A program made the translations under genes and the position numbers. From Methanothermococcus sp. Ax23 (GTDB lineage: Archaea; AGJL01; Methanococci; Methanococcales; Methanococcaceae): a DNA stretch of 64,000 nucleotides. The stretch's first letter is position 1; each line of letters starts with the position of its first letter. Of this stretch, positions 1 through 64,000 are shown piece after piece. The notes below the pieces were generated by a model. It did no database searches and had not been told where the DNA came from. It saw nothing but the letters and a program-made list of their open reading frames with translations. The DNA lies in NCBI RefSeq assembly GCF_049075655.1, contig NZ_CP157522.1, forward strand, positions 1,088,001 through 1,152,000, written 5' to 3'.

Positions 1-47
1 AATTACTCAAAATTAAGTGAATATTCTAAAAATATAGGTGATACTAC

Positions 48-233
48 ATGGTATGGTGGAAATGTTCCAACTGTGGATATTTATTTGAGGCTGACACAGT
101 GCCTGAAAAATGCCCAAATTGTGGCGAAATTTGCACTTTTTATGATGTAACCTGTTATACACCAGACTGCGGATGTCAAGGTTATGACCCAAAATTAGTT
201 GCAAGGTCGCCAAATGAAGAAAGCAGACTTTAA
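48..233 (+). CDS. Small rubredoxin-like zinc/iron-ribbon protein
   Basis: WKCSNCGY...PEKCPNCG motifs; GGTGA RBS upstream; first gene of the stress cluster visible in the window. Confidence 0.8.
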
Positions 234-258
234 ACTTAAATGGGGGTTAAATTTAATT

Positions 259-408
259 ATTAGACGAAAACTTCGGTTTTCGTTGCTATATGCTTATTCG
301 GAGCTCTGATTGAACTCCTTTGGATTTTGTAGCATCGAACCGAGGGTTCGAAATTAAAATTGTGAAGCAATTTTATATTCTACGCTCCTTCGGAGCTCCG
401 ATAACATA
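259..408 (+). repeat. Composite multi-hairpin element (ATTAGACG-type cassette plus CGGAGCTC-closed stem)
   Basis: attagacgaaaac-ttcg-gttttcgttgct matches the cassettes at 37374, in the MITE right ends and at 53640; 289-306 pairs with 393-408; internal hairpins tcgaacc/ggttcga and taaaattg/caatttta. Confidence 0.75.
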
Positions 409-458
409 AATTAACACCTTAATAAATATATTAATCAACAAATGGGAGAGGGTAAAAT

Positions 459-1139
459 ATGTGTGAAGAAGTATGTTGTATTGGAGAATACAGAATGCCA
501 TTAATAGGGGAGAAATTCCCTGAGGTAGAAGTTAAAACTACGCAAGGAGTTATAAAATTACCTAATCATTTTGAAGGTAAATGGTTTATTTTATTTAGCC
601 ATCCTGCGGACTTTACCCCAGTTTGCACCACAGAATTTGTAGCATTTCAAAAGAGATATGACCAATTTAAGGAGTTAAATGCCGAATTAATAGGTTTAAG
701 CATAGACCAGGTATTTAGTCATTTGAAATGGATTGAATGGATAAAAGATAATCTAGACGTTGACATTGAATTTCCAGTAATAGCAGATGATAGAGGGGAA
801 TTGGCTGAAAGATTAGGCATGGTAAGTCCATATAAGGGCAATAATACAGTTAGGGCAGTATTTGTTGTAGATGACAAGGGAGCAATTAGGGCAATATTGT
901 ATTATCCGCAAGAGGCTGGAAGAAATATCGATGAAATAATAAGATTGGTTAAAGCACTTCAAACATCCGATAAAGGAGTGGCACTTCCAGCGAACTGGCC
1001 TAACAATGATATAATCGGGGATAAGGTAATAGTTCCACCTGCTTCCACAGTTGAAGAAATGAATCAGAGAAAAGAAGCGGCTGAAAAAGGAGAAATAGAA
1101 TGCCTTGATTGGTGGCTTTGCTGTAAAAAATTAGAATAA
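459..1139 (+). CDS. Peroxiredoxin (archaeal Prx6/AhpC type)
   Basis: [15 protein letters not shown] peroxidatic motif; C-terminal CLDWWLC. Confidence 0.95.
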
Positions 1140-1165
1140 ATTATTCATATTTATTTTTTTGGTGA

Positions 1166-1411
1166 ATGAAAATGGTAGAAATTAAATTAGCTTGCAAATT
1201 AGATGACAGTTGTGAAAAACCAAAGTATAGGAAGTATAGGTGTAAAGTTTGCGGTTGGACATATGACCCGTTAAAAGGAGACCCTAGCCAAGACATTTCT
1301 CCAAAAACTCCATTTGAAGAGCTTCCGGACGATTGGATTTGTCCCATTTGCAGAGGTAAAGTTGGAAAAGAGTCCTTTGAGCCATTGGATGAATTAGTAG
1401 AATTTGACTGA
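1166..1411 (+). CDS. Rubredoxin
   Basis: KYRCKVCGWTYDP...PDDWICPIC. Confidence 0.9.
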   Translation: MKMVEIKLACKLDDSCEKPKYRKYRCKVCGWTYDPLKGDPSQDISPKTPFEELPDDWICPICRGKVGKESFEPLDELVEFD

Positions 1412-1419
1412 GGTAAAGT

Positions 1420-2007: not shown

Positions 2008-2076
2008 TTGTAAATTAATATTTATTACCATATATGTAAATTAAAATTAAAATCAAAAATAAGGGGGCGATATATT

Positions 2077-2427: not shown

Positions 2428-2504
2428 TTAACATTTTGGCTGTTTAGCCAAAATTTTTTATTTTATTTTTATTTTAATTTTTATTAATACTGCGTGGTGA
2501 TTTC

Positions 2505-7941: not shown

Positions 7942-8114
7942 TTCTCTTTTATTTTTTTATTTTTTTAGTTTTTTAATTTCGCATGATATTCGGGAAATTA
8001 AGTAGAGCTCTTTTAAATTTAATATTGCAGTTCGTTTAAATTATAGATTACAATATATAAATATAAAATAACCTAAATTGTTAATGGCTAAAAATCTAAA
8101 AAAAAGAAATAAAA

Positions 8115-8312: not shown

Positions 8313-8313
8313 C

Positions 8314-14103: not shown

Positions 14104-14487
14104 ATGAAATTATTATCTAAAAGAGCTCAGCTATCATTAGAATTTTCAATATTGCTTTTAGCAATACTTGTAATGTCCATTTTATCAATTTATTATTTCC
14201 TAAATGATAATTTTAACGAAAAAGACAGGATGCTAGATAAAATAGAAGTTGGGGCTAAAACTGCTGTTTCACTTGTGAATTCTGGATGCAATGGAACTCA
14301 TACGGATTATCCGATAATATATTTAGGTATGAAATATGATGACACTAAAACAAATATTAGTATATATGTAAAAAACCGGAGCTCCGTAGATGATTACACA
14401 AAAAAGTTTATTAACTACACAATATATAATAGTCAAAATATAAATAGCTCTAAATATAATATAAACGTAATATATTCAAATGACTAG
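14104..14487 (+). CDS. Class III signal peptide (pilin-like) protein
   Basis: KRAQLSLEF followed by a hydrophobic helix. Confidence 0.8.
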   Translation: MKLLSKRAQLSLEFSILLLAILVMSILSIYYFLNDNFNEKDRMLDKIEVGAKTAVSLVNSGCNGTHTDYPIIYLGMKYDDTKTNISIYVKNRSSVDDYTKKFINYTIYNSQNINSSKYNINVIYSND

Positions 14488-17387: not shown

Positions 17388-18354
17388 CGCTCATGTTCTT
17401 ATATCGGTTGAAAGTAATATCGATAACCATGTCTGTTTATTATTTAGTTTCAATGCCAACAAGTCTAAATACCCCTGTAACCATCGGAAACTAACTCCTC
17501 GGTATTTACTCATATAACTTCTTAAAAAACTGTGTCTATTCTCACAGCTATTGACATGAACATCTCCACGGGCAAATTCTCGCTTGGAATGATTTACAAA
17601 ATCATGCCCTTTCACAGTATTATCTAAATATATAGGTAGGTTTTCATAGATAGAATATTCATCAGTATATATCTTTATTTTTCCATTAATACAATCCTTA
17701 AATCTGTTCTTGAATTTTTTAGGAAACTTTTTAAGATTTTCAAAAACTGTGAATTTAACTTCCTTAGATTTTCGAACTACTATTGTAATTATTGGAGGTT
17801 TTCCTGATTTTGCTGTTCCTCTCCCTCTTTTGTGAGAACTTCTTTTTTTAGGATTCTTTTTTTAAACCTTTATCTCCTGCATGGATGTAAATTTCATCCA
17901 TCTCTATAATATCTTCCAATGTAGGGGATAATTTACCAGATATTTTTTGAACCTCATGGACGAAGTTTAAAACTGCTTTGTAGTCCCTATCCAATTCCTC
18001 AGAAATCTCTTTTGTAGATTTATGAGGCATATTTGCCAAAATATACATCATTTCATTAACTGGAAATTTATGATGTTCAAATATGGTATTAGTTAGGTCA
18101 TTGAATAATTTTCCACAGCTTTTACATTTATATCTTTGAGATTTCTTTGAGTTAGAGCCGTATTTTAAAATCTCTTTACTATTACAGTATGGACAAGTTA
18201 TTCCATCTTTCCATTTAGCTTTCCTAATTACCTCATAACATTTCTCTATATCTGGTAGAAATAAATTCCTGATAATGTCTTTATTCTCTATCATGGTAAA
18301 TATTATATATTTGAGAATATATAAATATTACCAACTGGAATATACAGATGAGCG
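17388..18354 (-). mobile_element. IS1595-family (ISXO2/ISH4-like) insertion sequence, 967 bp
   Basis: Imperfect ~23-bp TIRs cgctcatgttcttatatcggttg / cgctcatctgtatattccagttg; perfect 8-bp TSD ATTTTAAA at 17380-17387 and 18355-18362. Confidence 0.93.
17391..18294 (-). CDS. IS1595-family DDE transposase in two frames joined at an A7 run
   Basis: Zn ribbon CPYC...CKSC, HTH, EMDEIY; after a +1 shift at T7 17857-17863 the frame continues open: RGRGT...IYTDEY...VNHS...VHVNSCENRHS. Confidence 0.85.
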
Positions 18355-26891: not shown

Positions 26892-27445
26892 TAGAGGTTG
26901 AATTAAAGGCAAAACTTGAAAAAGAAGATATACCAAATTTTATTCGTAAATTAGAGGATTTAGGTTTTGAAAGACTTGTTAAAAAGGAAGAAGTGGATAT
27001 ATACTTCAACGGTATAGATAGGGATTTTAGGGAAACTGATGAAGCACTTAGAATCAGAAAGTCTTTGAATATTGACGAAAAGTATGTAAAATGCTATATG
27101 ACATACAAAGGTCCAAAAATGGACAATATTTCAAAAACTAGGGAAGAATTTGAGGTTCAAGTGAGTGATGGAGAATCTACAAAAATAATCTTGGAAAAAC
27201 TTGGTTTTAAGCCAGTAGAACCTATTGTAAAAATAAGGGAAATATACAAAAAGGATGACATCAGGGTATCTATCGATGAAGTAGAAAATGTTGGAACCTA
27301 TGTTGAATTTGAAAAGATGGTGAAATTAGAATCTGAAAAAGAGGATGCCATAAAAGAACTTATTAATTTAATGAAAAGTTTAAATATTAGTAATGACAGA
27401 TTAGTAAAAACATCATATTTGGAGCTGAGGGATAAAAATGAGTAA
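26888..27445 (+). CDS. cyaB: CYTH-family (class IV adenylate cyclase-like) protein
   Basis: EVELK, DIYF, ALRIR, TYKGPK, TREEFE. Confidence 0.88.
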   Translation: MIEVELKAKLEKEDIPNFIRKLEDLGFERLVKKEEVDIYFNGIDRDFRETDEALRIRKSLNIDEKYVKCYMTYKGPKMDNISKTREEFEVQVSDGESTKIILEKLGFKPVEPIVKIREIYKKDDIRVSIDEVENVGTYVEFEKMVKLESEKEDAIKELINLMKSLNISNDRLVKTSYLELRDKNE

Positions 27446-27554
27446 GAAAGATTCCAAATCTAACAAAAAAATAGACGGTAGAAAATTGATGGCAATATTC
27501 ATTGGAATAGCCATGATTTGCTCAGTGATTCCGTTATTTTTAATGAATTTATAA
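27438..27554 (+). CDS. 38-aa basic-N-terminus single-TM small protein, absent from ORF track
   Basis: MSKKDSKSNKKIDGRKLMAIFIGIAMICSVIPLFLMNL; GAGGG RBS; start overlaps the cyaB stop. Confidence 0.6.
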   Translation: MSKKDSKSNKKIDGRKLMAIFIGIAMICSVIPLFLMNL

Positions 27555-27751
27555 TTATAATAAAATATTAAAAATATTTATTATTTATTAATATAATCTC
27601 TCTTTTACGATTGATATTCTGGCTAGACATTCCCCTATTTTTAAATAATATAAAAATAATTAATGTATGTTATTTATTTACAATCTTATTAATCATTAAT
27701 TTGATTCAATTATTTATTTAATTTTATTTTAATGTAGGATGGTGATACTCT

Positions 27752-29548
27752 ATGGCTTTAAGATGTCCAATAGTAAGTGTTCTAGGTCATGTTGATCATG
27801 GGAAAACAAGCTTGCTTGATAAGATAAGAAAAACAAGAATTACAAAAAGAGAAGCTGGCGGAATTACTCAGCATATCGGTGCCAGTGAAATACCAACGGA
27901 TACAATAAAAAGAATATCGAAAGATTTACTTGGAATGTTAAAGGCTGATTTAACAATTCCTGGAATTTTGGTAATTGATACGCCAGGGCATGAGGCATTC
28001 ACTTCTTTGAGAAAAAGAGGAGGAGCTCTGGCAGATATTGCCATACTTGTAGTTGATATAAATGAAGGATTTAAACCCCAAACAATTGAGGCAGTTAATA
28101 TATTAAAACAGAATAAAACACCGTTTATAGTTGCAGCGAATAAATTAGATTTAGTTCCAGGATGGAATTCCGTTGATGGACCTTTTGTTTTAAATTCTAA
28201 TGAAACAAAACAGCACCCTAATGCATTAACGGAATTTGAAATTAGATTATATGAAAATATAATAAAACCACTAAATGAGCTCGGTTTTGAGGCAGACCTT
28301 TTTACAAGGGTAAAGGATATTACAAAAACTGTAAGCATCATACCAGTATCTGCTTTTACTGGGGAAGGTATTCCTGATTTACTTGTTATGCTTGCAGGTT
28401 TAGCACAGAAGTTTTTGGAGCAGAACTTAAATTTAAATGTTGAAGGTCCTGCAAAGGGAACAGTCCTTGAAATTAAAGAAGAGAGGGGTCTTGGAAAAAC
28501 AATTGATGCCATAATATATGATGGTGTTGCTAAGCAGGGGTATTATCTTGTAGTGGGTAATCCAACAGGGGTTGTAGTTTCAAGGATTAAGGCACTTTTA
28601 AAACCAAAACCTTTGGATGAGATGAGAGACCCAAGAGATAAGTTTAAACCTGTGAAAGAGGTAGCTGCGGCGTCAGGGCTTAAAATATCTGCACCAGATT
28701 TAGATAGTGTTATAGCAGGTAGTCCATTGAGAATTGTTCCAAAAAATAAAGTAGAGGAAGCTAAAAAAGAAATTATGGAAGAAATAGAAGAAACGGCAAT
28801 ACCAACTGATGATGAAGGAATTATTATTAAAGCCGATACAATGGGCTCATTGGAAGCTCTTGCAAATGAATTAAGAAAGAAAAATGTCAATATTAAAAAA
28901 GCAGAAGTAGGGGATGTTTCCAAGAAGGATATCATAGAAGCATCATCCTATGCTCAATCTAACCCATTAAATGGCGTTGTAATAGCTTTTAATACAAAGA
29001 TACTTCCAGATGCTAAAACAGAAATGGAAAAATCAGAAATAAAGGTATTTGAAGGAAATATTATATATAAATTAGTTGAAGATTATGAAGAATGGTTCAA
29101 AGAAATGGAGGAGCTCCTAAAATCAGATGACTTTAACAAACTTACAAAACCTGCAATTTTAAAGATACTTCCAAACTGTATATTTAGAAAAAGCAAACCT
29201 GCAATATGTGGAGTGGAGGTTTTGTATGGGACATTAAGGATAGGAAGTCAGCTAATGGGAGAAGACGGAAAAAGATTGGGATATGTTAAAGAAATAAAAA
29301 ATAGTCAGCAGGAAAACATAAGAGAGGCAAAAGTCGGCATGCAGGTTCCTATTTCAATTGAAGGAAATATTATGCTTGGAAAGCATGCAAAGGAAAATGA
29401 TATACTTTATGTAGATATTCCCGAAAATGAAGTTAGAAAACTGCATCACGAATATATGAATGAATTAAGAGGGGATGAAAAAGAGGCTTTGGAAAGATAT
29501 GTGGAATTAAAAAGAAAATTGGAAAATAATATGTTTTGGGGCATATAA
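27752..29548 (+). CDS. infB: Translation initiation factor aIF5B (IF-2)
   Basis: GHVDHGKT, GGITQHIGA, DTPGHEAF, NKLD. Confidence 0.97.
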   Translation: MALRCPIVSVLGHVDHGKTSLLDKIRKTRITKREAGGITQHIGASEIPTDTIKRISKDLLGMLKADLTIPGILVIDTPGHEAFTSLRKRGGALADIAILVVDINEGFKPQTIEAVNILKQNKTPFIVAANKLDLVPGWNSVDGPFVLNSNETKQHPNALTEFEIRLYENIIKPLNELGFEADLFTRVKDITKTVSIIPVSAFTGEGIPDLLVMLAGLAQKFLEQNLNLNVEGPAKGTVLEIKEERGLGKTIDAIIYDGVAKQGYYLVVGNPTGVVVSRIKALLKPKPLDEMRDPRDKFKPVKEVAAASGLKISAPDLDSVIAGSPLRIVPKNKVEEAKKEIMEEIEETAIPTDDEGIIIKADTMGSLEALANELRKKNVNIKKAEVGDVSKKDIIEASSYAQSNPLNGVVIAFNTKILPDAKTEMEKSEIKVFEGNIIYKLVEDYEEWFKEMEELLKSDDFNKLTKPAILKILPNCIFRKSKPAICGVEVLYGTLRIGSQLMGEDGKRLGYVKEIKNSQQENIREAKVGMQVPISIEGNIMLGKHAKENDILYVDIPENEVRKLHHEYMNELRGDEKEALERYVELKRKLENNMFWGI

Positions 29549-29756
29549 TTGATTTATTATATTCATATAAATTTTATATATTTTTAAGTTCCCTATTTTC
29601 ACTTTAAATGTATATAAATTAAAATAAATTAAAATCGTAAGTAATATATATGATATAATTACAAGATACATAAATCAGCTAGGATAAATTAATTAAATTC
29701 AAAATACATATTATAATATTTAATCCTTTAAATCTCTCTATTCTTGGAGGCATATC

Positions 29757-31244: not shown

Positions 31245-31297
31245 AAAATATAAGAAATAAAAAATAAATAAAAATAATAAAAAATAAAAATATACTA

Positions 31298-31588
31298 ATG
31301 TATGATATTATGCTCAAAGAACTGATAAACAAGATAATTTGGCATCCAGATTACGACTCAAAAGACTATGAAATAGTTTATTTGCATAGGGTTAGCGATA
31401 GTGAAAGGGAAGATTATAAGGGGCAGTCAATTCTTAATAAGATTATCACAATGGATAAAATATCGATAGAAGATTCATTTATAGTTTATAATGTGAATAA
31501 CCAAATAAGACACATTCCATTTCATAGAATTTTAGAAATTAGAAACAAAAAAACTGGGGAGATTTTGTATAAAAAAGTAAAAAGATAA
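31298..31588 (+). CDS. DUF504 / MJ1316-like protein
   Basis: NKIIWHP, YLHR, HIPFHRILEI. Confidence 0.78.
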   Translation: MYDIMLKELINKIIWHPDYDSKDYEIVYLHRVSDSEREDYKGQSILNKIITMDKISIEDSFIVYNVNNQIRHIPFHRILEIRNKKTGEILYKKVKR

Positions 31589-31626
31589 TTGTTATCTAAA
31601 ATATATAAACAAAGAAGGTTATTCAT

Positions 31627-32424: not shown

Positions 32425-32486
32425 TATTGATAATTTTAATATTTTTTTAAATATTTTTTTATTTTAATATTTAATATTTATTTTTG

Positions 32487-35195
32487 TTATTTATTTGGCG
32501 GTTTTTTATTATTTAGTAGTTTTACAACTTCCATATAGATAAATGTGGAAAAGGATGCAACTAAACATATTATCCAATCTCTTAATCCAAGTGTAGTAAA
32601 TTCAAAAATGCCCCTTAAATATGGAGTGTATAAAATAATCAATGTTATTATGGATATAAAAACTACCGCTAAAATCAATATCTTATTCATCGGAGCTCCG
32701 ATTTTAAATACTGATTCATCCAATGACCTAAAATTAAAGGTATTAAATATTACCATTCCTACTATTGTTGTAAAAACCATAGTTCTTGCGTATTCTATAT
32801 TTGCTATTGGATTGGAAATAATAAATACCATAAATGCCACAAAAGCCATAAAACTGGCTAATTTTATTACTAAAAAAAAGTTTTTTTTAGCCAATATCTC
32901 TTGCCCAATCTTTCTCGGCGGTTTGTTCATGACATCCTTTCTTACGGGGTCCATACCCAATGATATAGCAGGGAGCTCCTCGTCAAATGCATTTATAAAT
33001 AAAATTTGTAAAGGCAACAATGGAAGATAGTTAAAACCGTATATTAGTATGCCTATTGATATAAGGATTACCTCTGTAAAATTCCGGGAAATTAGATAGC
33101 AGGTGAATTTTTCTATATTTTCGTATATATTTCTACCGCTTTTAACTGCCTCCACTATCGTGGCAAAATTATCATCTTGGAGAATCATATCGCTGGATTC
33201 TTTTGCGACATCAGTTCCTTTTATGCCCATGGCTATGCCTATATCTGCCATTTTTAAAGCTGGGGCATCATTAACACCATCACCAGTCATAGCCACAATA
33301 TGACCTTTTCTTTTTAGGGTTTTAACAATCTTTAATTTCTGTTCAGGCATGACTCTTGCGTATATCTCCACAACATCCACAAGAGATTCAAATTCTTTTT
33401 CATCTAATATTTCCAGTTCGTTTCCAGTCATAACTCTTTTGACTGTTTTATTATCATCATTATCATCCAACAACCCAATTTTCTTACCTATTGCCTTTGC
33501 AGTTTCTTCATTATCTCCTGTTATCATTATTACCTTTATGCCTGCTTTTTTACAGGTTTCTATTGCCTCTTTTACTCCTTCTCTTGGCGGGTCAGTCATA
33601 CCAACTAAACCTAAAAAAATTAAATCATTTTCAATTTCATCATCTTTTAACGTATTATACTCATAATAATCTTCATTACAAATTTTTTTATATGCCACGC
33701 CAAGAACACGATAGGATGAGCTCGCCAGTTTGTTATTCATCCCAATTATTTTTTCTATTTCATCGGCATTAATTTCCCATATTCCATTGTCCTTTCGAAG
33801 CGAATCCTTCGGATTCGCTGACTTACGAAAACTCGAAGAGTTTTCGTCAAGTTTGATAAATTTGCATTTTTTTAAAATAACTTCCGGAGCTCCTTTTGAA
33901 AATACGATTAACTCATTATTTACATTATTTACCTCATCTACTTTATGAACTGTTGTCATCAATTTTCTTTCGGAACTAAACGCTATTTCTTTTATTCTCG
34001 GGTATCTTTTCTCCAAATTATCTTTCCATAAATCAGCCTTTGCACCAGCAACGATTAATGCCACCTCTGTTGGGTCTCCAATGGAGTCCCATATTCCATC
34101 GGTTTTCCTAATTACTGCATTGTTGCACAAGGAAACAGCCTTTAACAGTAAAACCAAATTTTCCTGAGTATCTACTTTAATATTCTTATCCTCTATAAAA
34201 AATTTCCCTTCTGGTTCATAGCCCTTTCCAGTTATTTCATAGATTTTGCCATCAACAAAAATTTTTTCCACAGTCATTTCATTTTTTGTTAAAGTGCCTG
34301 TTTTATCGGTGCAAATCACAGTAGTTGAACCAAGGGTTTCTACTGCAAGCATCTTTCTTACAACTGCATTATGCTTTGCCATATTGTGCATGCCCACCGA
34401 TAAGGTAAGGGTTAAAGTGAGTGGAAGCCCCTCGGGAACAGCCGCCACTGCAAGGGCAAGTGCAACCATTAACATCTCAGCAATAGGAGCTCCCATAAGA
34501 ATACCAAATCCAAACACCGCAGAACTGGATAATAATGCAATTAATGCCAATGTTCTTCCCAAATTGTGTATTTTTATTTGAAGTGGTGTTTTTTCTTTTT
34601 CATCTTTTTCAATCATATCTGCGATTTTTCCGAGCTCTGTTCTCATACCAGTATTAATTACAATAGCTTCACATTTTCCCCGCACAATCTGAGTTCCAGC
34701 AAAAATTAAGTCCCCCTTGGATTTTTTTACAGCTTTACTTTCTCCCGTTAGTATTGATTCATCAACCTTAAATTCCCCAATTGTATCTATAATTTTTGCA
34801 TCAGCGGGAATTATATCTCCCATTTCTAAAACAAGAACATCTCCGGGAACAACTTCCCTACTGTATATTTCTCTTAATTCCCCATCCCTTATTACCCGAG
34901 TTTTATATTGAACAAATTTTTTTAAAGATTCCATGGCTTTTTCTGCCTTATACTCCTGAATAAATCCCATGATTATAACAAAAATAATTACAAACAATAT
35001 CATCCAAAAATTAAGCACTTCACCAATAAAAATGGATATAGCCATTGCTACAATAAGCACCCACACTAAGAAATTACTCACAAACTGCCGGATTAAAATA
35101 TTAAGCCATGTTATTCTTTTTTTAGCTTTCAACTCATTGTATCCGTATTTTTCCAATCTCTCCTTAGCTTCCCATTCCGTTAAACCCAATGTCAT
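32487..35195 (-). CDS. P-type (IIA, Ca2+-type) cation-transporting ATPase
   Basis: DESILTGES, PEGL, DKTGTLT, KGAPE, TGDN, GDGVND; start likely MTLG at 35195; carries a 19-aa cassette insertion. Confidence 0.93.
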   Translation of the reverse strand: MTLGLTEWEAKERLEKYGYNELKAKKRITWLNILIRQFVSNFLVWVLIVAMAISIFIGEVLNFWMILFVIIFVIIMGFIQEYKAEKAMESLKKFVQYKTRVIRDGELREIYSREVVPGDVLVLEMGDIIPADAKIIDTIGEFKVDESILTGESKAVKKSKGDLIFAGTQIVRGKCEAIVINTGMRTELGKIADMIEKDEKEKTPLQIKIHNLGRTLALIALLSSSAVFGFGILMGAPIAEMLMVALALAVAAVPEGLPLTLTLTLSVGMHNMAKHNAVVRKMLAVETLGSTTVICTDKTGTLTKNEMTVEKIFVDGKIYEITGKGYEPEGKFFIEDKNIKVDTQENLVLLLKAVSLCNNAVIRKTDGIWDSIGDPTEVALIVAGAKADLWKDNLEKRYPRIKEIAFSSERKLMTTVHKVDEVNNVNNELIVFSKGAPEVILKKCKFIKLDENSSSFRKSANPKDSLRKDNGIWEINADEIEKIIGMNNKLASSSYRVLGVAYKKICNEDYYEYNTLKDDEIENDLIFLGLVGMTDPPREGVKEAIETCKKAGIKVIMITGDNEETAKAIGKKIGLLDDNDDNKTVKRVMTGNELEILDEKEFESLVDVVEIYARVMPEQKLKIVKTLKRKGHIVAMTGDGVNDAPALKMADIGIAMGIKGTDVAKESSDMILQDDNFATIVEAVKSGRNIYENIEKFTCYLISRNFTEVILISIGILIYGFNYLPLLPLQILFINAFDEELPAISLGMDPVRKDVMNKPPRKIGQEILAKKNFFLVIKLASFMAFVAFMVFIISNPIANIEYARTMVFTTIVGMVIFNTFNFRSLDESVFKIGAPMNKILILAVVFISIITLIILYTPYLRGIFEFTTLGLRDWIICLVASFSTFIYMEVVKLLNNKKPPNK
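33796..33852 (-). repeat. 57-nt double-hairpin cassette inserted in frame in the ATPase
   Basis: acttgacgaaaactc-ttc-gagttttcgtaagtc-agcgaatcc-gaa-ggattcgct-tcg; near-identical to 46569-46626; removal gives CKFIKKDNG. Confidence 0.85.
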
Positions 35196-35323
35196 TGTAT
35201 CACAAAATATATAATAATAAATAAAAACGGTAGTATGATGATAAAAAATAATAAAATATAAAAATATGGAGTATATGGACATATTTTTAAAATTTATACA
35301 TTATTTATGTTTTTTGAACTAAT

Positions 35324-36433
35324 TTACAATCTACTGTATTTGTAAAATATCCTACAAGTTCCTTCATCAGAAACCATACAGCTTCCAATAGGATTTAATG
35401 GATTGCATGGATTTCCAAATAATTTACAATCGCTGGGTAATTTTTCCCCCCTTAGTATTTCACTACATATGCAACCTTTGTTTATTTTTTCCTCTATTTC
35501 TGGGATATCCTCATGCTCAAATATGTCAAATTTTGCATATTTTTCCCTAAGTTTTAAGCCACCTTCTTTTATAATTGGAAAACCTCTCCAAGCAACATCA
35601 GCAGGTTCAAACACTTCGTTTATCATCTTCTGGGCAACCATGTTTCCTTCTTCCCTAACTGCCCTTTTATACTCGTTTTCAACCTTTGCCGTATTGTTTA
35701 TTATCTGCTTCAAAATCATGGCAATTGATACCAAAACATCAAGGGGTTCAAATCCTGCTACAACCATCGGAGCTCCGTATTTTTCACAAGGTTCATAGTA
35801 TGGTTTTAAACCTGTAATTGTTGAAACATGCCCTGGACATATAAATCCATCTATATTTGTTGTTCCTTGACTAAGCAAAAAGTCCATAACTGGTGGTGTT
35901 TGCCTATGACAGTTCAATATATAGAAGTTTGATTCATTTTTATTACCACTTAATTTATTGTTAAGATGTAGGAGCTCCGCGGCTGTTGTTGGTGCTGTGG
36001 TTTCAAAGCCTATGGCTACAAATACAACTTTTCCCTTATTGTTTTCCTTCTGCTCTTTTGCAAGTTTTACTGCATCCCCTATTCCATATACTATCCTTAC
36101 ATCAGCCCCTTCTGATTGAAGTTGCATCAATGATTTTTTACTTCCGGGAACTCTATACATGTCTCCCAATGTGGTTATTGTGTATCCATTTTCAGCCAAA
36201 TAAATTGCAGTATCTATCTCTTTCTGAGTGGTGACACATACTGGACATCCAGGACCTGGTATAACCGTTATATTTTCAGGAAGAACGTCCCTTATTCCAT
36301 ATTTACAGATGGTATGTTCATGAGAACCGCAGACATGCATTATCTTTACATTGTCATCTATTTTACCTGACAGTTTTTTAATAGTATCTATTGATTTTTT
36401 TATCAAAGTTTTGTCGTTGATGTTTATTGCCAT
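35324..36433 (-). CDS. hypD: Hydrogenase maturation factor HypD
   Basis: VCGSHEH, GPGCPVC, GFETT, PGHVS, GSCMVSDEGTC. Confidence 0.96.
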   Translation of the reverse strand: MAININDKTLIKKSIDTIKKLSGKIDDNVKIMHVCGSHEHTICKYGIRDVLPENITVIPGPGCPVCVTTQKEIDTAIYLAENGYTITTLGDMYRVPGSKKSLMQLQSEGADVRIVYGIGDAVKLAKEQKENNKGKVVFVAIGFETTAPTTAAELLHLNNKLSGNKNESNFYILNCHRQTPPVMDFLLSQGTTNIDGFICPGHVSTITGLKPYYEPCEKYGAPMVVAGFEPLDVLVSIAMILKQIINNTAKVENEYKRAVREEGNMVAQKMINEVFEPADVAWRGFPIIKEGGLKLREKYAKFDIFEHEDIPEIEEKINKGCICSEILRGEKLPSDCKLFGNPCNPLNPIGSCMVSDEGTCRIFYKYSRL

Positions 36434-36539
36434 AATATCCCTACTGTTTATATAATATTAATATCTTATTAAAAATAAAATGGTTAATCCTATATAAATT
36501 GTTATTTATAAAATTTATAAAAATGTGAAGGTGAAAATT

Positions 36540-36929
36540 ATGTTCCCAGGAAGGATGAATCCAAGGATGTTAAAACAAATGCAGAAGATGATGAAAGATT
36601 TTGGAATGGATGCTGAGGATTTAAAAGCGGTGAAGGTAACAATCGAGTTAGAGGACAAAATACTTGTGTTTGAAAAGCCAAAGGTTCAATTAATGGATAT
36701 GATGGGGACCAAAACATACTCCATAACAGGAAAGGCTAAAAAGATTAAGAAAGAAACAGAGGAAAAACCAGAAGAGAAAATAAAGGATGAAGAAGTTAAA
36801 TTAGATATCACTGATGAAGATATTGAAATGGTAATGAATCAGTGCAATGTTTCAAAAGAAGAGGCTAAAAAGGCATTGGAAGAATGCAACGGAGATATAG
36901 CTGAGGCGATTTTAAAACTAAGTGAATAA
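36540..36929 (+). CDS. nac: Archaeal nascent polypeptide-associated complex protein
   Basis: MFPGRMNPR...; C-terminal UBA-like GDIAEAILKL. Confidence 0.92.
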   Translation: MFPGRMNPRMLKQMQKMMKDFGMDAEDLKAVKVTIELEDKILVFEKPKVQLMDMMGTKTYSITGKAKKIKKETEEKPEEKIKDEEVKLDITDEDIEMVMNQCNVSKEEAKKALEECNGDIAEAILKLSE

Positions 36930-37010
36930 ATTTATTGAATTTTAAATTATAAATTATTAAACTTATTTTTTTACGATAAACCGCCGAGAAAGCCAACGAT
37001 TTTAATCGTT

Positions 37011-37420: not shown

Positions 37421-37813
37421 ATTGCATGGCAAAACTACTTCAAACAACACACTAAAAGACCACGATACCAACCAAAAGATGGACACTTTCCCGTAAAATG
37501 GAAGAAGCAAGGTTTCAAAATCATAGGCAATAAGTTAAGATTATCCTTATCTAAACAAACTAAAAACTATCTCAAAGAGAAGCATGGTATCAAGTGCAGG
37601 TATCTATGGGTAGGGTTATCGAAAACTCTACCGCTTGATACCATGCAGGTTAAAGAAGTTGAGATAGTTCCGCAGACCATCTATGGGATAACCTACTACA
37701 TACTTCACTTAATCCATAAGAAACCAGTAATTCAAGAACCTATCAAAGAAGGTAATATATTAAGTATTGATTTAGGAATTAAGAATTTAGCAACAGCAAT
37801 AACAAACACAGGT

Positions 37814-37861
37814 ATCAGGCGAAAACCTTCGGTTTTCGCTACTCACCAACATCAGTTGGTG
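37814..37861 (+). repeat. 48-nt double-hairpin cassette (in frame) in tnpB
   Basis: atcaggcgaaaacc-ttc-ggttttcgctac-tcaccaac-atca-gttggtg; removal gives TNTG-KAVIYDG. Confidence 0.8.
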
Positions 37862-38550
37862 AAAGCAGTAATCTACGATGGAAGAAGGTTAATTTCTAAA
37901 TTCCGATGGTTTGCTAAAACAAAGGGGAAAATACAGTCTGCACTAACAAAACAGGAGTTAAAGAATAACAAAAGATTATCACACTTAACAGTAAAGGAGA
38001 AAAACTACACTAAGGATTATCTTCATAAGGTCAGTAAGATGATTGTTGATTTTGCAGTAGATAATAAAGTTTCAAGGATTGTAATCGGCGAGTTAAACAA
38101 AGGTATTTCAAATATTAATATTGGTAGAAAGAACAACGAGAAAATACACAAGATACCTTTTGGTAGGTTAGTAAGTATGATACAGTATAAAGCAGAGGAA
38201 AGGGGATTAACAGTAGAACAGGTTAATGAATCTTATACTTCTCAAACTTGTAGTAATTGTGGTGTGGTTAAAAAGAGTAATAGGAAGTATAGGGGTTTGT
38301 ATGTGTGTAGTGAGTGTGGTATGGTTTTGAATGCTGATATTAACGGGGCTTTGAATATTTTAAAAAAAGTATTTTCATGTAGCGTAGCCCTGAACCCGTT
38401 AATGGGTAGGGGTAGTGGGCTTGGCAACCCATGTAGGGTTAGACCCTGCTAAAGAACCCCACGATTTTAATCGTGGGAGTATGTCAGGTTATTAAAAATT
38501 TAAATAAAAATTTAGATAATTTATAACATGCTGAATTATCGGTGAAAAAA

Positions 38551-42315: not shown

Positions 42316-43260
42316 ATGAAAAAACTATTTTTTATTTTTTTTAATATATTTTTAATATCCTCTTTAAGCACAATTTACGCATGGGATGACTGTCCTTATG
42401 GTAAAACTGATTCATCATGCACATTTCCAGGAGAGTGTGGAAAATACATTGATACAAACAACAACGGGATATGTGACCACAGTGAGCCAGCACCTACTAT
42501 GAGCGGAGCTCCGTCAAACATACCACCAACAAGTGAAGGAACGATGTCGGAGGAACTTATTGATAAATATGTTCCAACGCCAAGTAGTGAGTTGAAAAAC
42601 TACACTATAAAACAGGTGTGCGAAGAATATAACCTAAGTCAGGATTGTTTAATTAATGCTTTAAAATCAAAAATAAATGAAATCAACGAAATGAGCAAGA
42701 GCTCTCCATCTGATGAGATACAGCTTACAGAAGAGATAGTTGATGAATATATAGACATATCAGGAAGTGAGTTAAAGAGCTATACCATAAAACAAATTTG
42801 CGAAATGTATGGTATAAATCCTGAGGATTTAAAGAGAAATTTAGGGGTATCGGTGGATGATGACACTACATTCGATACCATTAAAAAAACTTATGGAATA
42901 CCACCATCAAAATCCAAAGAGGCAATACTTAAATGTTTAATAGATGATGGAAAAGTAGTTTTAGACACTAAAACGGTTCAAGATTCTATTGATAAAAGTA
43001 ATCAATTAAAAGAAACATTAATTAATGAATTAAACGAAAACACCACTTTAAATGAAATTAAAGAAGTTTATGGGTTATCTCCAACTGACCTTAAAGAGGC
43101 AATACTTAACTGTATGATTGACGAAGGAATTGTAAGTATAGACAGCACAAATGTCTCCACCAATGGTGATAATTTAAATACTTCCGAATCCATAATTGAT
43201 AAAATAATAAAGTTCTTATTCACAGAACTGGATTTAAGAAATTTATTTAAAAGTAATTGA
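42316..43260 (+). CDS. Exported hypothetical protein with Cys-rich N-terminal motif and internal repeats
   Basis: Signal peptide; DDCPYG...CTFPGECGKYIDTNNNGICDHS; duplicated SELKxYTIKQxC and TT...IK..YG..P...KEAIL.C..D.G. Confidence 0.75.
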   Translation: MKKLFFIFFNIFLISSLSTIYAWDDCPYGKTDSSCTFPGECGKYIDTNNNGICDHSEPAPTMSGAPSNIPPTSEGTMSEELIDKYVPTPSSELKNYTIKQVCEEYNLSQDCLINALKSKINEINEMSKSSPSDEIQLTEEIVDEYIDISGSELKSYTIKQICEMYGINPEDLKRNLGVSVDDDTTFDTIKKTYGIPPSKSKEAILKCLIDDGKVVLDTKTVQDSIDKSNQLKETLINELNENTTLNEIKEVYGLSPTDLKEAILNCMIDEGIVSIDSTNVSTNGDNLNTSESIIDKIIKFLFTELDLRNLFKSN

Positions 43261-60610: not shown

Positions 60611-60764
60611 ATTCTCACCCATGTAAATGTTTATATTTTATTAATTTTATTAATTTTATTTTAACAAATATCTTTTTATTATTTATACTATTAGGTAGGA
60701 TGATTTATGCAATATATGGTATTTAAATAGTATTTAAATGATGATTAATTTTATAAGGGAAACT

Positions 60765-61526
60765 ATGGTAATAAAAGAAAAAAGAAGAATGGAAGTTATA
60801 GGATTAGAAATACCGATAATCTCAGGAGATGAAGAGTTAGGGCTTAATTATCTCGCCGATTTAATTTCAAGCTACCCAATAGAAGATAAGGACATAATAA
60901 TTATAGCAGAAACCATCATATCAAAACTTGAAGGAAACATATTAAAAAAAGATGATATAAAACCATCCAAAGAAGCTTATGAGCTTGCAAAGCAGTTGGA
61001 CAAATCCCCTGAAGTTGTGCAAGTAATACTGGATGAATCAAATGAAATAGTTAAAGTTGGTGAAAAATTCATAATTACAGAAACAAAGCACGGTTTTGTA
61101 TGTGCAAACAGCGGAGTTGATGAAAGCAATTCTCTTGATGCTATAAAACCTCTTCCAAAAAATCCCGACAAAAGTGCAGCTGAGCTCAGAAAAATGATTG
61201 AAGAAAAAACTGGAAAAAAGGTTGGAGTAATAATAAACGACAGCATGGGAAGACCATTTAGAAAAGGTTCCTGTGGTGTAGCAATAGGAGTCAGCGGAGT
61301 ATGTGCATTGTGGGACAGAAAAGGAGAAGAAGATTTATTTGGAAGACCCCTTCATACAACAGAAGTTGGAATAGCAGATGAGCTCGCGGCTACTGCATCT
61401 GTTGTAATGGGGCAGTCAAATGAAGGGATACCTATTGTAATTATAAGAAACGCACCAGTTCCTTTTATTGATGGAAATGGGAAGGATTTAATTAGAAAAA
61501 AAGAAGAGGATGTTTTTAGACAATAG
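60765..61526 (+). CDS. cofE: Coenzyme F420-0:L-glutamate ligase
   Basis: ETIISKLEG, GFVCANSGVDESN, DSMGRPFR, DLFG, ADELA. Confidence 0.93.
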   Translation: MVIKEKRRMEVIGLEIPIISGDEELGLNYLADLISSYPIEDKDIIIIAETIISKLEGNILKKDDIKPSKEAYELAKQLDKSPEVVQVILDESNEIVKVGEKFIITETKHGFVCANSGVDESNSLDAIKPLPKNPDKSAAELRKMIEEKTGKKVGVIINDSMGRPFRKGSCGVAIGVSGVCALWDRKGEEDLFGRPLHTTEVGIADELAATASVVMGQSNEGIPIVIIRNAPVPFIDGNGKDLIRKKEEDVFRQ

Positions 61527-61665
61527 ACTATGGGAAATAATAAATCATGCAAAATTTATATATATTAATTAATAATAGTAAAGATTAAATAATATAGATA
61601 TAATTTTATAATGACATTATCCAAATAAATAAATTTCAAAAAGAACATAAATTTAGTGATGTATT

Positions 61666-63228
61666 ATGTGTTCAATAAATGGAATAATCGTAAAAGATGA
61701 CGACGATGACCCGAGTAGTTGTAAAAAGAAGATTTTAGAATATTTAATTAATGGAATGAAGATTTTAAAACATAGAGGTCCAGATGGCTCTGGATTAATG
61801 TTTGATGATGAAGTTATTTATTTTAAAGAGTTTAGTGATGTAAGGATACCAGTTAATAAATCCAACAGATTGGGTATAGGGCATAACAGACTGGCTATTG
61901 TAGGTCATGCAAGTCAGCCAATCCCAAACGAGGACGAAAGTATATGGACAATCTGCAACGGAGAAATTTATAATTACTATGAATTAATGGAAGATTTGCA
62001 AAATGACCATGGGATTAATACTGATACTGATACAGAGGTTATACTCCATACCTACGAAGATGATTTATTAAATGAGCTCGACGGAGATTATGCATACTGC
62101 CTGTATGATAAAAATAAAAACACGATAATGTTAAGAAGGGACATTTTTGGAGTAAAGCCGCTTTTTTATATAAATAGGGATAAATACTTTGCCTTTGCTT
62201 CTGAGAAAAAGGCATTATGGCATTTGCTGATGGAAATAGACGGAATGTCATTTGAAGAGGCATACAATTACCCAGTATCTCGTTTAAATCCAAACAGTCA
62301 GTTGATATATGACTTAAATGAAAATGAATATGAAGTGGAGGAGAATATCCAAAAAATTAGAGTGGATTATTTTGAAAATAACTACAATACAAACACGGAT
62401 TATGAAACCTGTAAAAAGGAACTTGAAGAAGCACTATGGGACTCAGTATCAAAGAGAACTAGGGGAATTGACAGGGTTGGAATTATCTATTCTGGCGGTG
62501 TTGATAGCACACTTATAGCAAAAATGGCGTCAGAGTATTGTGATGTAATACTATACACAGTAGGCACGGAAGAAAGTGAAGATATAGAATATGCTGAAAA
62601 AGCTTCAAAGGATATGGGTCTAAAATTCAGAAAAAAAATCATACCGCCAGAGGAATATGAGAAATACCTTTTAAATGTGGCTTATGCCATTGACGAAATA
62701 GATTTGATGAAACTTGCAGTGGGTATCCCAATATATGTTGCTTCTGAAATGGCTAAGGAAGATGGAATAAAAGTGGTATTATCAGGGCAGGGTGCAGATG
62801 AGTTATTCGGTGGATATAATAGATATGGAAGAATATTGGCTGAAAAAGGAGAGGAAGAACTTAAAAAATCACTACATAATGATGTAATGAATATCTATAA
62901 AGTAAACCTTGAAAGGGATGACCACTGCACAATGGCAAATGGTGTAGAGCTCAGGGTTCCATTTTTAGATAAAGATGTGGTTGAAGTGGGGCTGTCCTTA
63001 CCTATCGAATATAAACTAAATGATACCGAAAGAAAAATAATTTTAAGGGATGTTGCTTCAAATTATATTCCAGATTATATAGCTTATCGACCTAAAAAAG
63101 CGGCACAATATGGAAGCGGAAGCGAAAAAATGATATATGCCGTTGCAAGAAAATACGGATATTCAAAAAAGAAAATAAATGAATTCTTTGAAAATGTTTT
63201 AATGGAAAAGATAAGGAATATGCATTAA
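61666..63228 (+). CDS. asnB: Asparagine synthetase (glutamine-hydrolysing)
   Basis: N-terminal Cys, HRGPD, NGEIYN, SGGVDS, SGQGADELFGGY. Confidence 0.93.
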   Translation: MCSINGIIVKDDDDDPSSCKKKILEYLINGMKILKHRGPDGSGLMFDDEVIYFKEFSDVRIPVNKSNRLGIGHNRLAIVGHASQPIPNEDESIWTICNGEIYNYYELMEDLQNDHGINTDTDTEVILHTYEDDLLNELDGDYAYCLYDKNKNTIMLRRDIFGVKPLFYINRDKYFAFASEKKALWHLLMEIDGMSFEEAYNYPVSRLNPNSQLIYDLNENEYEVEENIQKIRVDYFENNYNTNTDYETCKKELEEALWDSVSKRTRGIDRVGIIYSGGVDSTLIAKMASEYCDVILYTVGTEESEDIEYAEKASKDMGLKFRKKIIPPEEYEKYLLNVAYAIDEIDLMKLAVGIPIYVASEMAKEDGIKVVLSGQGADELFGGYNRYGRILAEKGEEELKKSLHNDVMNIYKVNLERDDHCTMANGVELRVPFLDKDVVEVGLSLPIEYKLNDTERKIILRDVASNYIPDYIAYRPKKAAQYGSGSEKMIYAVARKYGYSKKKINEFFENVLMEKIRNMH

Positions 63229-63266
63229 TTTAATTTTTAATTTATTTTATAATATATTCATTCATA

Positions 63267-64000
63267 TTACCATCCAATATCTATTAATTTCCCATCATAA
63301 ACAATAACTGCATCCCCTTTCATATAAACTCCATCTTCTTTAATTTCAATTTCCAAATCTCCACCATCTAAATGTGCTAAAACCTTACTTCCTGTTTTTC
63401 CAAGTTTATGGGCAATAATTACTGAGCTCGTTGTTCCAGTTCCACATGCTGTTGTATAACCTGCCCCTCTTTCCCATGTAAGTATTTTTATTTCTTCTGG
63501 ACTTATAACCTCTATAAAATGGACATTTATTCTTTCTGGGAATACTTCGTGGTTTTCTATCTCTTTACCTAAAATATTTAAGTTATCTCTTGCAAAATCC
63601 ATAGTAATATCGTTATCTTCAACAAATATCACAGCGTGGGGATTCCCAACATTTACAACGCTTAATTTAATTTCATCCATCAAATCATTATTTAATTTAA
63701 CACTTTCATTTAAAAATTCATCCTCTTTGGACTTCCCTTCTATCTTCATAGGTATGTCTTTTAGTTTAAATTTCGGAGCTCCCATATATACTTTAACTGT
63801 TTTTACAATATCGTTTTCTATCTCCATCTCAGAAACTCTTAAACCGCCCTTTGTTTCTACATTCAAGGGATTCTTTTTTAATATCCTCTCATAAACATAC
63901 TTGGAGAAGCACCTTATTCCATTTCCACACATTTCAGCTTCTGACCCATCACTGTTGAATATCCTAAACCTCACATCGTATTTATCATCGGTTGGTTTTT
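63267..64000 (-). CDS. dapF: Diaminopimelate epimerase (5' end outside window)
   Basis: NSDGSEAEMCGNG, VGNPH, ERGAGYTTACGTG. Confidence 0.94.
   Translation of the reverse strand, partial: KPTDDKYDVRFRIFNSDGSEAEMCGNGIRCFSKYVYERILKKNPLNVETKGGLRVSEMEIENDIVKTVKVYMGAPKFKLKDIPMKIEGKSKEDEFLNESVKLNNDLMDEIKLSVVNVGNPHAVIFVEDNDITMDFARDNLNILGKEIENHEVFPERINVHFIEVISPEEIKILTWERGAGYTTACGTGTTSSVIIAHKLGKTGSKVLAHLDGGDLEIEIKEDGVYMKGDAVIVYDGKLIDIGW

Follow-up and report, generated by a model that had tools for sequence, protein, structure and literature searches.

GAGCTC in Methanothermococcus sp. Ax23: a highly iterated palindrome of the Archaea, analogous to the cyanobacterial HIP1

The hexamer GAGCTC is vastly over-represented in the genome of the methanogen Methanothermococcus sp. 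Ax23, and it is a genuine archaeal analogue of the cyanobacterial Highly Iterated Palindrome 1 (HIP1), a comparison first drawn in an earlier note on part of this DNA and borne out here, given that the word is frame-independent, hyper-abundant and conserved between genomes. The stretch in question, hereafter the window, comprises 64 kb of the chromosome (G000:C1:1088001-1152000, where G000 denotes Ax23, and C1 its chromosome of 1.663 Mb and 31.9% G+C; a second contig, C2, spans 7.7 kb). It contains 76 copies of GAGCTC, or 1.19 per kb, against a mean of 4.04 (standard deviation 1.78, maximum 9) in 100 dinucleotide-preserving shuffles; the earlier note, made from the sequence alone, had put these figures at about 75 and about 4. 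The genes of the window are those of ordinary methanogen housekeeping, including formylmethanofuran dehydrogenase, CO dehydrogenase/acetyl-CoA synthase, HypD, aIF5B and F420 ligases. Genome-wide there are 2089 copies, 2085 on C1 and 4 on C2. The interpretation that we favour, albeit tentatively, is that this highly iterated palindrome (GAGCTC, or the octamer GGAGCTCC in one relative, G010) serves as a word of 'self' and is subject to a strong force that acts site by site.

The observed/expected (O/E) ratio for GAGCTC across the genome is 16.7, 19.7, 13.1, 4.9 and 1.6 under Markov models of order 0, 1, 2, 3 and 4, respectively; the last value is low because the order-4 model is built from overlapping pentamers of GAGCTC itself and, therefore, mostly absorbs the signal. 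When hexamers are ranked by their order-1 O/E, GAGCTC stands first and is far ahead of the rest; immediately behind it come hexamers that overlap it, and no other palindrome is above 1.8. With crude gene calls (greedy, non-overlapping open reading frames (ORFs) of at least 100 amino acids that start with ATG; 1460 genes, 82% coding), about 1876-1877 sites fall within genes (1.37 per kb) and 209 outside them (0.71 per kb). By codon phase, the sites within genes divide into 1059 in phase 0 (Glu-Leu), 603 in phase 1 (Gly/Arg-Ala-x) and 215 in phase 2 (x-Ser-Ser). The earlier note had also described sites in all phases, on both strands and between genes, and the window is indeed so composed: 35 are in phase 0 (18 in plus-strand and 17 in minus-strand genes), 23 in phase 1, 11 in phase 2 and 7 in non-coding DNA.

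Synonymous codons were shuffled 30 times within each gene, keeping the protein and the per-gene codon usage (with the sites' own codons included), and these shuffles predict 77, 80 and 23 sites in the three phases, or 180 in total, compared with the 1877 seen, an excess of ~10-fold. Relative to dinucleotide expectation, coding DNA is enriched ~18-fold (1877 versus 102), and non-coding DNA, at 26.8% G+C, ~26-fold by its own dinucleotides (209 versus 8.0). The genome-wide comparisons that the earlier note had proposed thus leave the enrichment in place after synonymous shuffling in every phase; because all phases and non-coding DNA are enriched, it is neither a codon or dicodon effect nor a signal of one reading phase. 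That the word is an artefact of codon, dicodon or amino-acid usage, or belongs to some repeated element, is consequently hardly conceivable: the modest order-4 ratio is the point in favour of usage, and against it stand the shuffles, the three phases, the non-coding excess and the 4-229 copies held by relatives of similar base composition, whereas a repeated element is countered by the sites being single, Poisson-spread and not embedded in any longer repeat.

The scarcity of GATC that the earlier note had suspected is pronounced: there are 2 copies in the window and 157 in the genome, where base composition predicts ~4900. Other palindromes are also avoided in G000, with O/E of 0.02-0.04 for TGATCA, AGATCT and GGATCC, and of 0.04-0.14 for CTTAAG, GTTAAC, GTGCAC, CTGCAG, CTCGAG (8 sites), GTCGAC, GTATAC and CTATAG; presumably, this avoidance reflects past or present restriction systems.

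The unit of enrichment in G000 is the hexamer. Flank preference is mild (G before, 0.37; C after, 0.39) and the complementarity of the ±1 flanks is 0.311 versus 0.280 expected, such that the flanks are nearly independent. The octamer GGAGCTCC, although 58-fold above expectation, accounts for only 14 of the 76 window sites. As for the extended 10-mer CGGAGCTCCG, which the earlier note had singled out, its five positions in the window are confirmed (0 copies were expected there), but it does not stand as an extended unit: C1 carries 35 copies versus 24.3 predicted from independent flanks, and AGGAGCTCCT is more numerous, at 54. Near-independent flanks, and a 10-mer close to its flank expectation, therefore argue for the hexamer. 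The sole flank combination that deviates strongly is the asymmetric 10-mer CAGAGCTCCG, with 38 copies on the G000 chromosome versus 11.4 from independent flanks.

Relatives were surveyed in a set of 41 genomes, G000 included, drawn at the level of the order together with one genome from outside it. Five are rich in GAGCTC, namely, G000 (2089), G012 (2070), G010 (1645), G013 (1515) and G003 (1321, in a 1.4-Mb draft). The other 36 hold 4-490 copies; within the order the range is 4-229, and the figure of 490 belongs to the single genome outside it. Some genomes of the same genus are actually depleted (G007, 4; G008, 9; G005, 14; G002, 16), neutral relatives having ~100, so that one genus holds enriched, neutral and purged states of the same word. 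No methyltransferase shared by G007, G008, G005 and G002 accounts for their depletion. The rich genomes also differ in dialect: in G010, GGAGCTCC makes up 1259 of the 1645 sites (56 of 69 in a 66-kb sample), where ~2 copies would be expected (our own arithmetic from 30% G+C), whereas in the other four it amounts to 13-16% (G000, 333/2089; G012, 335/2070; G003, 184/1321; G013, 191/1515).

In a tree of a single gene, that for aIF5B (27 of 30 loci, as three frames of intein length were left out; 11 genomes gave no locus), the rich genomes appear at three places: (G012,(G000,G003)) group tightly, G010 of the same genus stands apart on a long branch, and G013 falls outside both that genus and its sister genus. 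Among the rich lineages lies a clade of seven poor or depleted genomes. G000 shares site positions with G013 and G010 above chance (odds ratios 12.8 and 16.2, respectively), a comparison that is confounded by the near-saturation of phase 1 described below; for phase 0 only, the corresponding fractions are 6/16 versus 5/61, and 7/26 versus 3/41. The enrichment may have had one origin or several.

The force that maintains the word is most apparent in the protein-coding sequence. In G000, GAG-CTC encodes 28% of Glu-Leu dipeptides, and GAG precedes 39% of CTC codons. Where the choice of third positions suffices to write the word, occupancy is almost complete (123/124 for Gly-Ala-Pro and 67/68 for Gly-Ala-His); for the pooled tripeptides [GR]-A-[PHQ] it is 314/327 (96%) versus ~11% from codon usage, by hand arithmetic. 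Occupancy is 27-65% where the Leu or Arg codon family must also switch, and 19% for x-Ser-Ser. Hand estimates based on site-removed codon frequencies put the rise in the odds of the full word at ~40- to 200-fold in Glu-Leu and Gly/Arg-Ala-x, and at ~12-fold in x-Ser-Ser, the 26-fold excess of non-coding DNA being in the same range; taken together, the force raises the odds of a complete word by ~20- to 200-fold in the three phases and in non-coding DNA. Near-saturation of phase 1 needs A-to-T transversions, because GCA is the common Ala codon, and it also needs changes of GCA, GCC and GCG to GCT, and of GGN to GGA. The force thus works via every kind of substitution. Moreover, it has altered protein sequences: [GR]A[PHQ] tripeptides have an O/E of 2.04 in the G000 proteome versus 0.96 for the reversed tripeptide, and Glu-Leu reaches 1.21 versus 0.89 for Leu-Glu. 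Among sampled ORFs of relatives, the [GR]A[PHQ] ratio is 2.85 in G012 and 4.4 in G010 (n = 25), compared with 0.92 in the poor genome G005 (n = 6).

Turnover of sites in orthologues, which the earlier note had put forward as a check, was followed in codon alignments of G000 with fetched parts of its relatives, and the sites proved to be conserved well above the synonymous background. Over 273 kb aligned with G012 (nucleotide identity 0.861, and 0.716 at third positions), the two genomes have 430 and 436 sites, respectively, and 345 in common. Where the amino acids are compatible with the word, 49 of 55 G000 sites (89%) are intact in G012, versus 30 of 80 other synonymous hexamers (37-40%); third-position identity in the 66-kb conservation sample of this pair is ~0.70. 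At the positions of G000 sites, poor relatives have ordinary codons, mostly two or three mismatches away from the word, and their samples contain few sites or none (G005, 0 in 66 kb; G008, 0 in 30.7 kb; G004, 4 in 40 kb).

With G012 as polariser, changes could be assigned to the G000 and G003 branches in 173 genes (172 kb). Scoring presence in G000, G003 and G012 in that order, the site patterns number 151 for 111, 33 for 110, 58 for 101, 37 for 100, 13 for 011, 9 for 010 and 40 for 001. Of the 222 ancestral sites, G003 has lost 58 (26%), in most cases through one transition, and it has 9 gains, whereas G000 has lost 13 of 222 (6%) and gained up to 37, about half of which, by hand estimate, are perhaps older gains or parallel losses. 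Third-position identity between G000 and G003 is 0.80, and ~10% change per branch predicts a neutral loss of ~19-25%; the sites of G003 thus appear free of constraint, and those of G000 protected about four-fold. Synonymous branch lengths are alike (4016 for G000 and 3628 for G003, over 55,753 aligned codons), and a general relaxation of selection was rejected as the cause of the decay in G003, since the difference in the ratio of non-synonymous to synonymous changes (0.288 versus 0.241 in G000) is too small. Occupancy at [GR]A[PHQ] agrees, being 0.96 in G000, 0.94 in G012 (173/185) and 0.80 in G003 (98/122). In G000, then, the force both protects existing sites and still creates new ones; it operates in G000 and G012, whereas G003 has lost it.

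The near-neutral decay in G003 implies that the force which maintains the word rests on something losable. Treating G003 as a natural knock-out, we scanned 753 kb (~54% of the draft) and found no candidate that acts on DNA and is retained in G012. Its yield was 42 synteny gaps and 13 possibly truncated genes, with one clean case, g445, which to judge from its sequence reads as a membrane permease. On both branches, as polarised by G012, AT-to-GC changes exceed GC-to-AT changes (3108 versus 1255 in G000, and 2520 versus 1534 in G003), which suggests either a rising G+C content in the G000/G003 clade or a polarisation bias from the more AT-rich G012.

Sites are neither clustered nor evenly spaced, and in long-resident DNA there is approximately one per 0.8 kb. 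Bins of 10 kb have a mean of 12.5 and a variance of 13.4, the variance/mean ratio is 0.90-1.22 across bins of 2 to 50 kb, and the gaps fit an exponential distribution (Kolmogorov-Smirnov p = 0.41). No periodicity was detected between 5 and 200 kb, as the strongest spectral peak was matched by 23% of 1000 random placements, with a method simpler than that of Xu et al. Along genes, only the first tenth is poorer in GAGCTC, and no peak is seen upstream of gene starts genome-wide. Each site acts alone, indifferent to spacing or gene position.

Mobile DNA is a clear departure from this distribution. The earlier note had seen no sites in the IS1595 and tnpB elements; the copies in the window are by themselves too short to be informative, but genome-wide the coding matches to TnpB and transposases (26 copies or fragments of four families) have 0 sites in 18,384 bases versus 23.0 expected (Poisson P ~1e-10), and TnpB alone (11 copies or fragments) has 0 versus 9.9. 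The longest gaps also exceed the Poisson expectation: one of 11.1 kb, for which 0.002 such gaps are expected, and a pair totalling 12.5 kb. These correspond to two surface-glycan clusters of 26-27% G+C (G000:C1:113848-124946, with 0 sites, and 1342927-1355393, with 1 site), which encode glycosyltransferases, polysaccharide flippases and radical-SAM/SPASM enzymes, and which are probably recently exchanged islands. A CRISPR-type (clustered regularly interspaced short palindromic repeats) cluster with a RAMP protein sits in a site-free stretch of 7.0 kb, and a Type III restriction-modification system within one of 5.3 kb. Given that transposases and islands have no sites, GAGCTC marks long-resident DNA.

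As a mechanism, the earlier note had proposed methylation of AGCT or GAGCTC coupled to a Vsr-like repair, and a search for enzymes co-distributed with the enrichment. No such enzyme is common to the rich genomes. Vsr (PF03852) was found in none of the 41 genomes, with controls matched in E. coli, B. subtilis and Caulobacter; C5 methyltransferases (PF00145) had no match in G000 and G003 and sub-threshold ones in G010 and G012, and the PF00145 enzyme of G013 has counterparts in many poor genomes. The N4/N6 methyltransferases (PF01555, PF02384 and PF02086) are patchy, with no family common to the five rich genomes: G010 has one strong candidate (453 amino acids), whereas G012 has none in PF01555. 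Furthermore, phase-1 occupancy needs GCA-to-GCT transversions, which T:G repair cannot produce. A one-mismatch test for very-short-patch repair revealed no clear sink; the neighbours of the word are mildly depleted (O/E 0.58-1.22, those containing GATC or GCGC excepted), and GAGTTC/GAACTC, at 1.22, not at all. Cytosine methylation with Vsr-type repair is, therefore, not the mechanism in these genomes. The nearest precedent, Dcm/Vsr acting on CCWGG in enterobacteria, resembles the present case in that a repair tied to a short palindrome biases the frequency of that palindrome, but its effect in E. coli is small; here, the effect is far stronger, transversions are needed, and neither a Vsr nor an over-cutoff C5 enzyme was found in G000, G003, G010 or G012.

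The restriction-modification inventory of G000 comprises a Type I system, two Type IIG enzymes, an Eco57I-like methyltransferase, a Type III system and a Type II pair, none of which is common to all rich genomes. A SacI-type system would be expected to lead to avoidance of its word, whereas GAGCTC is enriched in G000; RE_SacI (PF09566) had no match in the 41 genomes, but its controls were silent too, so that absence is not established. The Type II pair (G000:C1:1437541-1439159) consists of a 300-amino-acid PF01555 methylase and a convergent 245-amino-acid enzyme (PADLOC REase_II, 376 bits); the G003 counterpart of the latter matches residues 81-238 only and may be truncated. Also in this part of the chromosome, the gene for the RtcB tRNA ligase (G000:C1:1434168-1436975) carries an intein with a LAGLIDADG domain.

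One other system deserves consideration. By seeking resident G000 genes that are missing from G003, we found a 5.2-kb block (G000:C1:1537329-1542521) with 18 sites (3.5 per kb), in place of which G003 has a gap of 32 nucleotides. It encodes four proteins (Table 1), including a DpdA, and a DDE transposase gene without any site comes after it (locus G000:C1:1537329-1543897); no DpdB-like gene lies within the four-gene cassette, although a genome-wide search for DpdB was not made. The four genes are present as a set in G013 (77-86% identity), G010 (63-70%) and G032 (49-60%), and the DpdA family model exceeds its cutoff in only these genomes and G000, 4 of the 41. In G012 and G003, neither the four protein queries nor the DpdA family model detected the cassette. 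Three of the four carriers thus represent the three rich lineages (hypergeometric P ~0.004, by hand arithmetic and with relatedness ignored). Copies in rich hosts have 0.9-2.1 GAGCTC per kb, and that of G032 has 0 in 4.2 kb. Of the other palindromes of the form N-AGCT-N, CAGCTG was counted in G032 and rejected as an alternative enriched word, as its count there, 300, is ordinary (170-315 in genus-mates).

DpdA/DpdB of Salmonella act on the PvuII site, CAGCTG, where they exchange the central G; the C next to it is required and positions 1 and 6 contribute (PMC10164549). The likeness to this Dpd system (DpdA/B/C of Salmonella Montevideo) lies in the DpdA equivalog of three rich lineages and in the AGCT core that CAGCTG shares with GAGCTC; unlike there, DpdA is here partnered by a UvrD/AddA-like helicase and a nuclease resembling Cas4, DpdC is matched only weakly, and no DpdB was seen in the cassette. 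Judged by its gene content, the cassette may represent an archaeal Dpd-type 7-deazaguanine DNA modification system of a hitherto undescribed gene set. It is, however, neither necessary nor sufficient for the enrichment: G012, which lacks it, has 2070 sites and 94% occupancy, and G032 carries it with only 130 copies of GAGCTC. Moreover, the same site is empty in both G012 and G003, indicating a recent insertion in G000, and the cassette therefore postdates the enrichment that G000 shares with G012 (345 shared sites). We read the association of DpdA with rich genomes as real but secondary; it is more economical to suppose either that a system directed at GAGCTC is of benefit only where the gene pool is rich in the word, or that the island moves preferentially among such genomes.

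How HIP1 itself arose is debated, with selection, a repair ratchet, chromosome structure and DNA uptake all having been proposed (PMC5861425; PMC13756078); its conservation has been read as selection (PMC5861425), and it was recently proposed to be an uptake sequence (PMC13756078). As described there, HIP1 (GCGATCGC) is, like GAGCTC, a palindrome that is over-represented tens- to hundreds-fold at about one per kb, in every reading frame and between genes, conserved above background, with dialects, and missing from some lineages. The differences are several. GAGCTC is another word (6 bp, or 8 bp in G010) in another domain of life, and is neither GCGATCGC nor a one-off variant of it, GATC-containing palindromes being the most avoided words in G000. 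No methyltransferase for the internal sequence that is shared by the rich genomes was found (PF00145, PF01555, PF02384 and PF02086); no periodicity of the 10-90 kb type was seen with our simpler method; and the word is avoided by sister lineages, with one lineage caught in decay.

A further comparison is with the uptake signal sequences of Pasteurellaceae and the DNA uptake sequences of Neisseriaceae, which also occur at approximately one per kb in coding and non-coding DNA, affect proteins and have lineage-specific dialects, and which are thought to accumulate by molecular drive, that is, biased uptake with recombination. They differ from GAGCTC in being non-palindromic and 9-12 nucleotides long, and the one transformation gene that we checked fails to track the signal. 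In the literature searched, we found no description of an archaeal uptake sequence and no earlier report of GAGCTC abundance in archaea, the work on highly iterated palindromes being exclusively cyanobacterial.

Most likely, GAGCTC is read as a whole word by a two-fold symmetric DNA-recognising protein. Under the interpretation that we favour, the word would be a mark of resident ('self') DNA, as has been argued for HIP1 and for bacterial uptake sequences, and its abundance would result from per-site selection, or from molecular drive, exerted by a lineage-specific, losable and possibly horizontally transferred factor. Two routes could lead there, and we give them about equal weight: DNA with the word might be preferentially taken up or recombined, or recognition might proceed via a base modification at the central G, for which a DpdA-type 7-deazaguanine transglycosylase would be the sole concrete candidate. 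The fuller version of the latter, whereby 7-deazaguanine inserted by DpdA at the central G would sort resident from foreign DNA during exchange, we consider doubtful. The alternative mentioned in the earlier note, of a DNA-binding, uptake or recombination signal, comes close to this interpretation, although one uptake test failed.

That test concerned natural transformation, which in M. maripaludis proceeds via type IV-like pili, and for which a TctA-like transporter and a partner with an oligonucleotide/oligosaccharide-binding fold are essential (PMC10133366); the available text of that paper mentions no uptake sequence. The TctA-like gene is intact (frames of 406-412 amino acids) in G000, G003, G010 and G013, and split in G012 (G012:C1:516935-518076) into frames of 149 and 305 amino acids, which may be a recent event. 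Several observations weigh against the self-DNA interpretation. With regard to uptake, this one gene is undamaged in G003, where the sites decay, and broken in two in G012, where occupancy is 94%, the reverse of what maintenance by uptake would predict, and the site-free islands entered the genome nonetheless. With regard to the modification route, the difficulties are those set out above for the cassette, namely, its absence from G012, its recent arrival in G000 and its presence in G032. The single-molecule real-time methylome of M. aeolicus PL15/Hp reports CTAG, GTNAC, GCACY and CGAG, together with 5-methylcytosine at ACGT (PMC10113651); GAGCTC is absent from the main text of that paper, although the strain may not be GAGCTC-rich. 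More generally, our analyses identified no GAGCTC-recognising protein, a self-mark that protects its neighbourhood should favour even spacing, yet the spacing is random, and conservation cannot by itself tell selection from a repair that restores sites.

A rival explanation is biased repair or gene conversion, in which an enzyme would restore one-off versions of GAGCTC and so drive a mutational ratchet without benefit to the cell; in a variant, the word-bearing genome copy would be favoured during conversion in presumably polyploid cells, polyploidy being a feature of the Methanococcales. We regard this as rather unlikely, although several observations favour it: sites are both protected and created, the odds shift alike in all contexts, including non-coding DNA, random spacing suits sites that evolve alone, some gains changed amino acids (GATATT and GAGCAT in both relatives, for example, where G000 has GAGCTC), and the decay in G003 would fit the loss of one enzyme. 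A similar ratchet has been proposed for HIP1 (cited in PMC5861425). Such an enzyme would, however, have to correct every type of mismatch at all six positions, transversions included, and no candidate was found. Vsr was found in none of the 41 genomes despite working controls, G000 and G003 have no C5 methyltransferase and the rich genomes share no methyltransferase, and one-mismatch neighbours are only mildly depleted.

The two remaining explanations strike us as distinctly improbable, to a similar degree. One makes the DpdA cassette itself the cause, in that modified GAGCTC, read by the helicase-nuclease, would select for a dense self-mark, the cassette having been lost recently from G012 and earlier from G003. 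DpdA does occur in three independent rich lineages and in just one other of the 41 genomes, the known bacterial target has the AGCT core (PMC10164549), an AddA/UvrD-like helicase and a Cas4/AddB-like nuclease adjoin DpdA, and cassette similarity tracks dialect, that of G000 being closer to the hexamer genome G013 (77-86%) than to the octamer genome G010 (63-70%). On the other hand, G012 shows no decay without the cassette, the cassette entered G000 only once G003 had diverged, at a position where neither G003 nor G012 carries it, and G032 possesses the cassette without enrichment, even within its own copy. The other explanation is architectural: GAGCTC would be the binding site of a lineage-specific chromosome-organising or nucleoid protein that needs many dispersed sites. 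A palindrome suggests a dimeric binder, the sites are conserved and missing from recently acquired DNA, and a structural role has been argued for HIP1 by Xu et al. (PMC5861425), the periodicity of HIP1 having prompted a proposal of this kind. This is opposed by the lack of periodicity (p = 0.23) and of under-dispersion (variance/mean ~1 at all bins tested), by the uniformity along genes save for the first-tenth dip, and by the purging of the word to 4-16 copies in sister lineages, which is hard to explain on structural grounds.

The features of the window and the genes of the cassette are collected in Table 1.

Table 1. Features of the 64-kb window (positions within the window) and, in the last four rows, the genes of the DpdA cassette
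Feature	Position	Strand	Remarks
GAGCTC field, 76 dispersed sites	1..64000		counts versus dinucleotide shuffles
CGGAGCTCCG, non-coding copy	391..400
CGGAGCTCCG in class-III-signal-peptide (pilin-like) gene	14377..14386		gene 14104-14487
CGGAGCTCCG in P-type ATPase gene	32691..32700	gene -	gene 32487-35282, 6 sites in gene
CGGAGCTCCG in hypD	35768..35777	gene -	gene 35324-36433
CGGAGCTCCG in ORF without Pfam family	42504..42513		ORF 42316-43260
aIF5B gene	27752..29548	+	3 sites (28023, 28277, 29111); tree marker and synteny anchor
Non-coding GAGCTC, example	8005..8010		other non-coding: 301, 393, 16054, 22815, 23373, 46654
IS1595-type zinc-ribbon transposase fragment	17848..18294	-	0 sites
TnpB (OrfB_IS605 / Cas12f-like TNB)	37643..38452	+	0 sites
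Cassette gene 1, 150-amino-acid DUF6884 protein			PADLOC PDC-M57A 48 bits; weak DpdC match 26.6 bits
Cassette gene, 772-amino-acid UvrD/PcrA/AddA-like helicase
Cassette gene, ~316-amino-acid PD-(D/E)XK nuclease			Cas4/AddB-like matches
Cassette gene, 420-amino-acid DpdA			NCBIfam equivalog NF041059 426.6 bits (cutoff 200); PADLOC DpdA 411 bits

For positions 27001-37000 of the window, 66-87% of the sampled words are present in public contigs, which derive from 7 runs of 3 studies on vent, subsurface and unspecified metagenomes, and from three runs labelled by organism; close relatives are therefore present in such samples.

Few non-coding signals in prokaryotic genomes are as strong as HIP1 and the uptake sequences, whose origin is still debated. 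The present case offers, largely within one genus, a set of contrasts, comprising hexamer and octamer dialects, neutral relatives, relatives that purge the word and one that has lost the force, and these make the cause findable by comparative genomics and simple bench tests in cultivable methanogens. Near-total synonymous fixation and a shift in protein composition, without a recognisable cytosine-methylation/Vsr system, bear directly on models of HIP1. On a practical level, SacI-type sites are ~20 times commoner than expected, and any modification of them would affect the cloning and transformation of these organisms. If the doubtful version with 7-deazaguanine at the central G is correct, the lineages that share the word would form a preferential gene-exchange community, among which the DpdA island of G000, with its 3.5 sites per kb, would have moved, and the sister lineages would be defending themselves by cutting or purging GAGCTC; the word would then be the first uptake or self-recognition sequence in the Archaea, and the case the first of a Dpd-type system shaping the composition of a genome.

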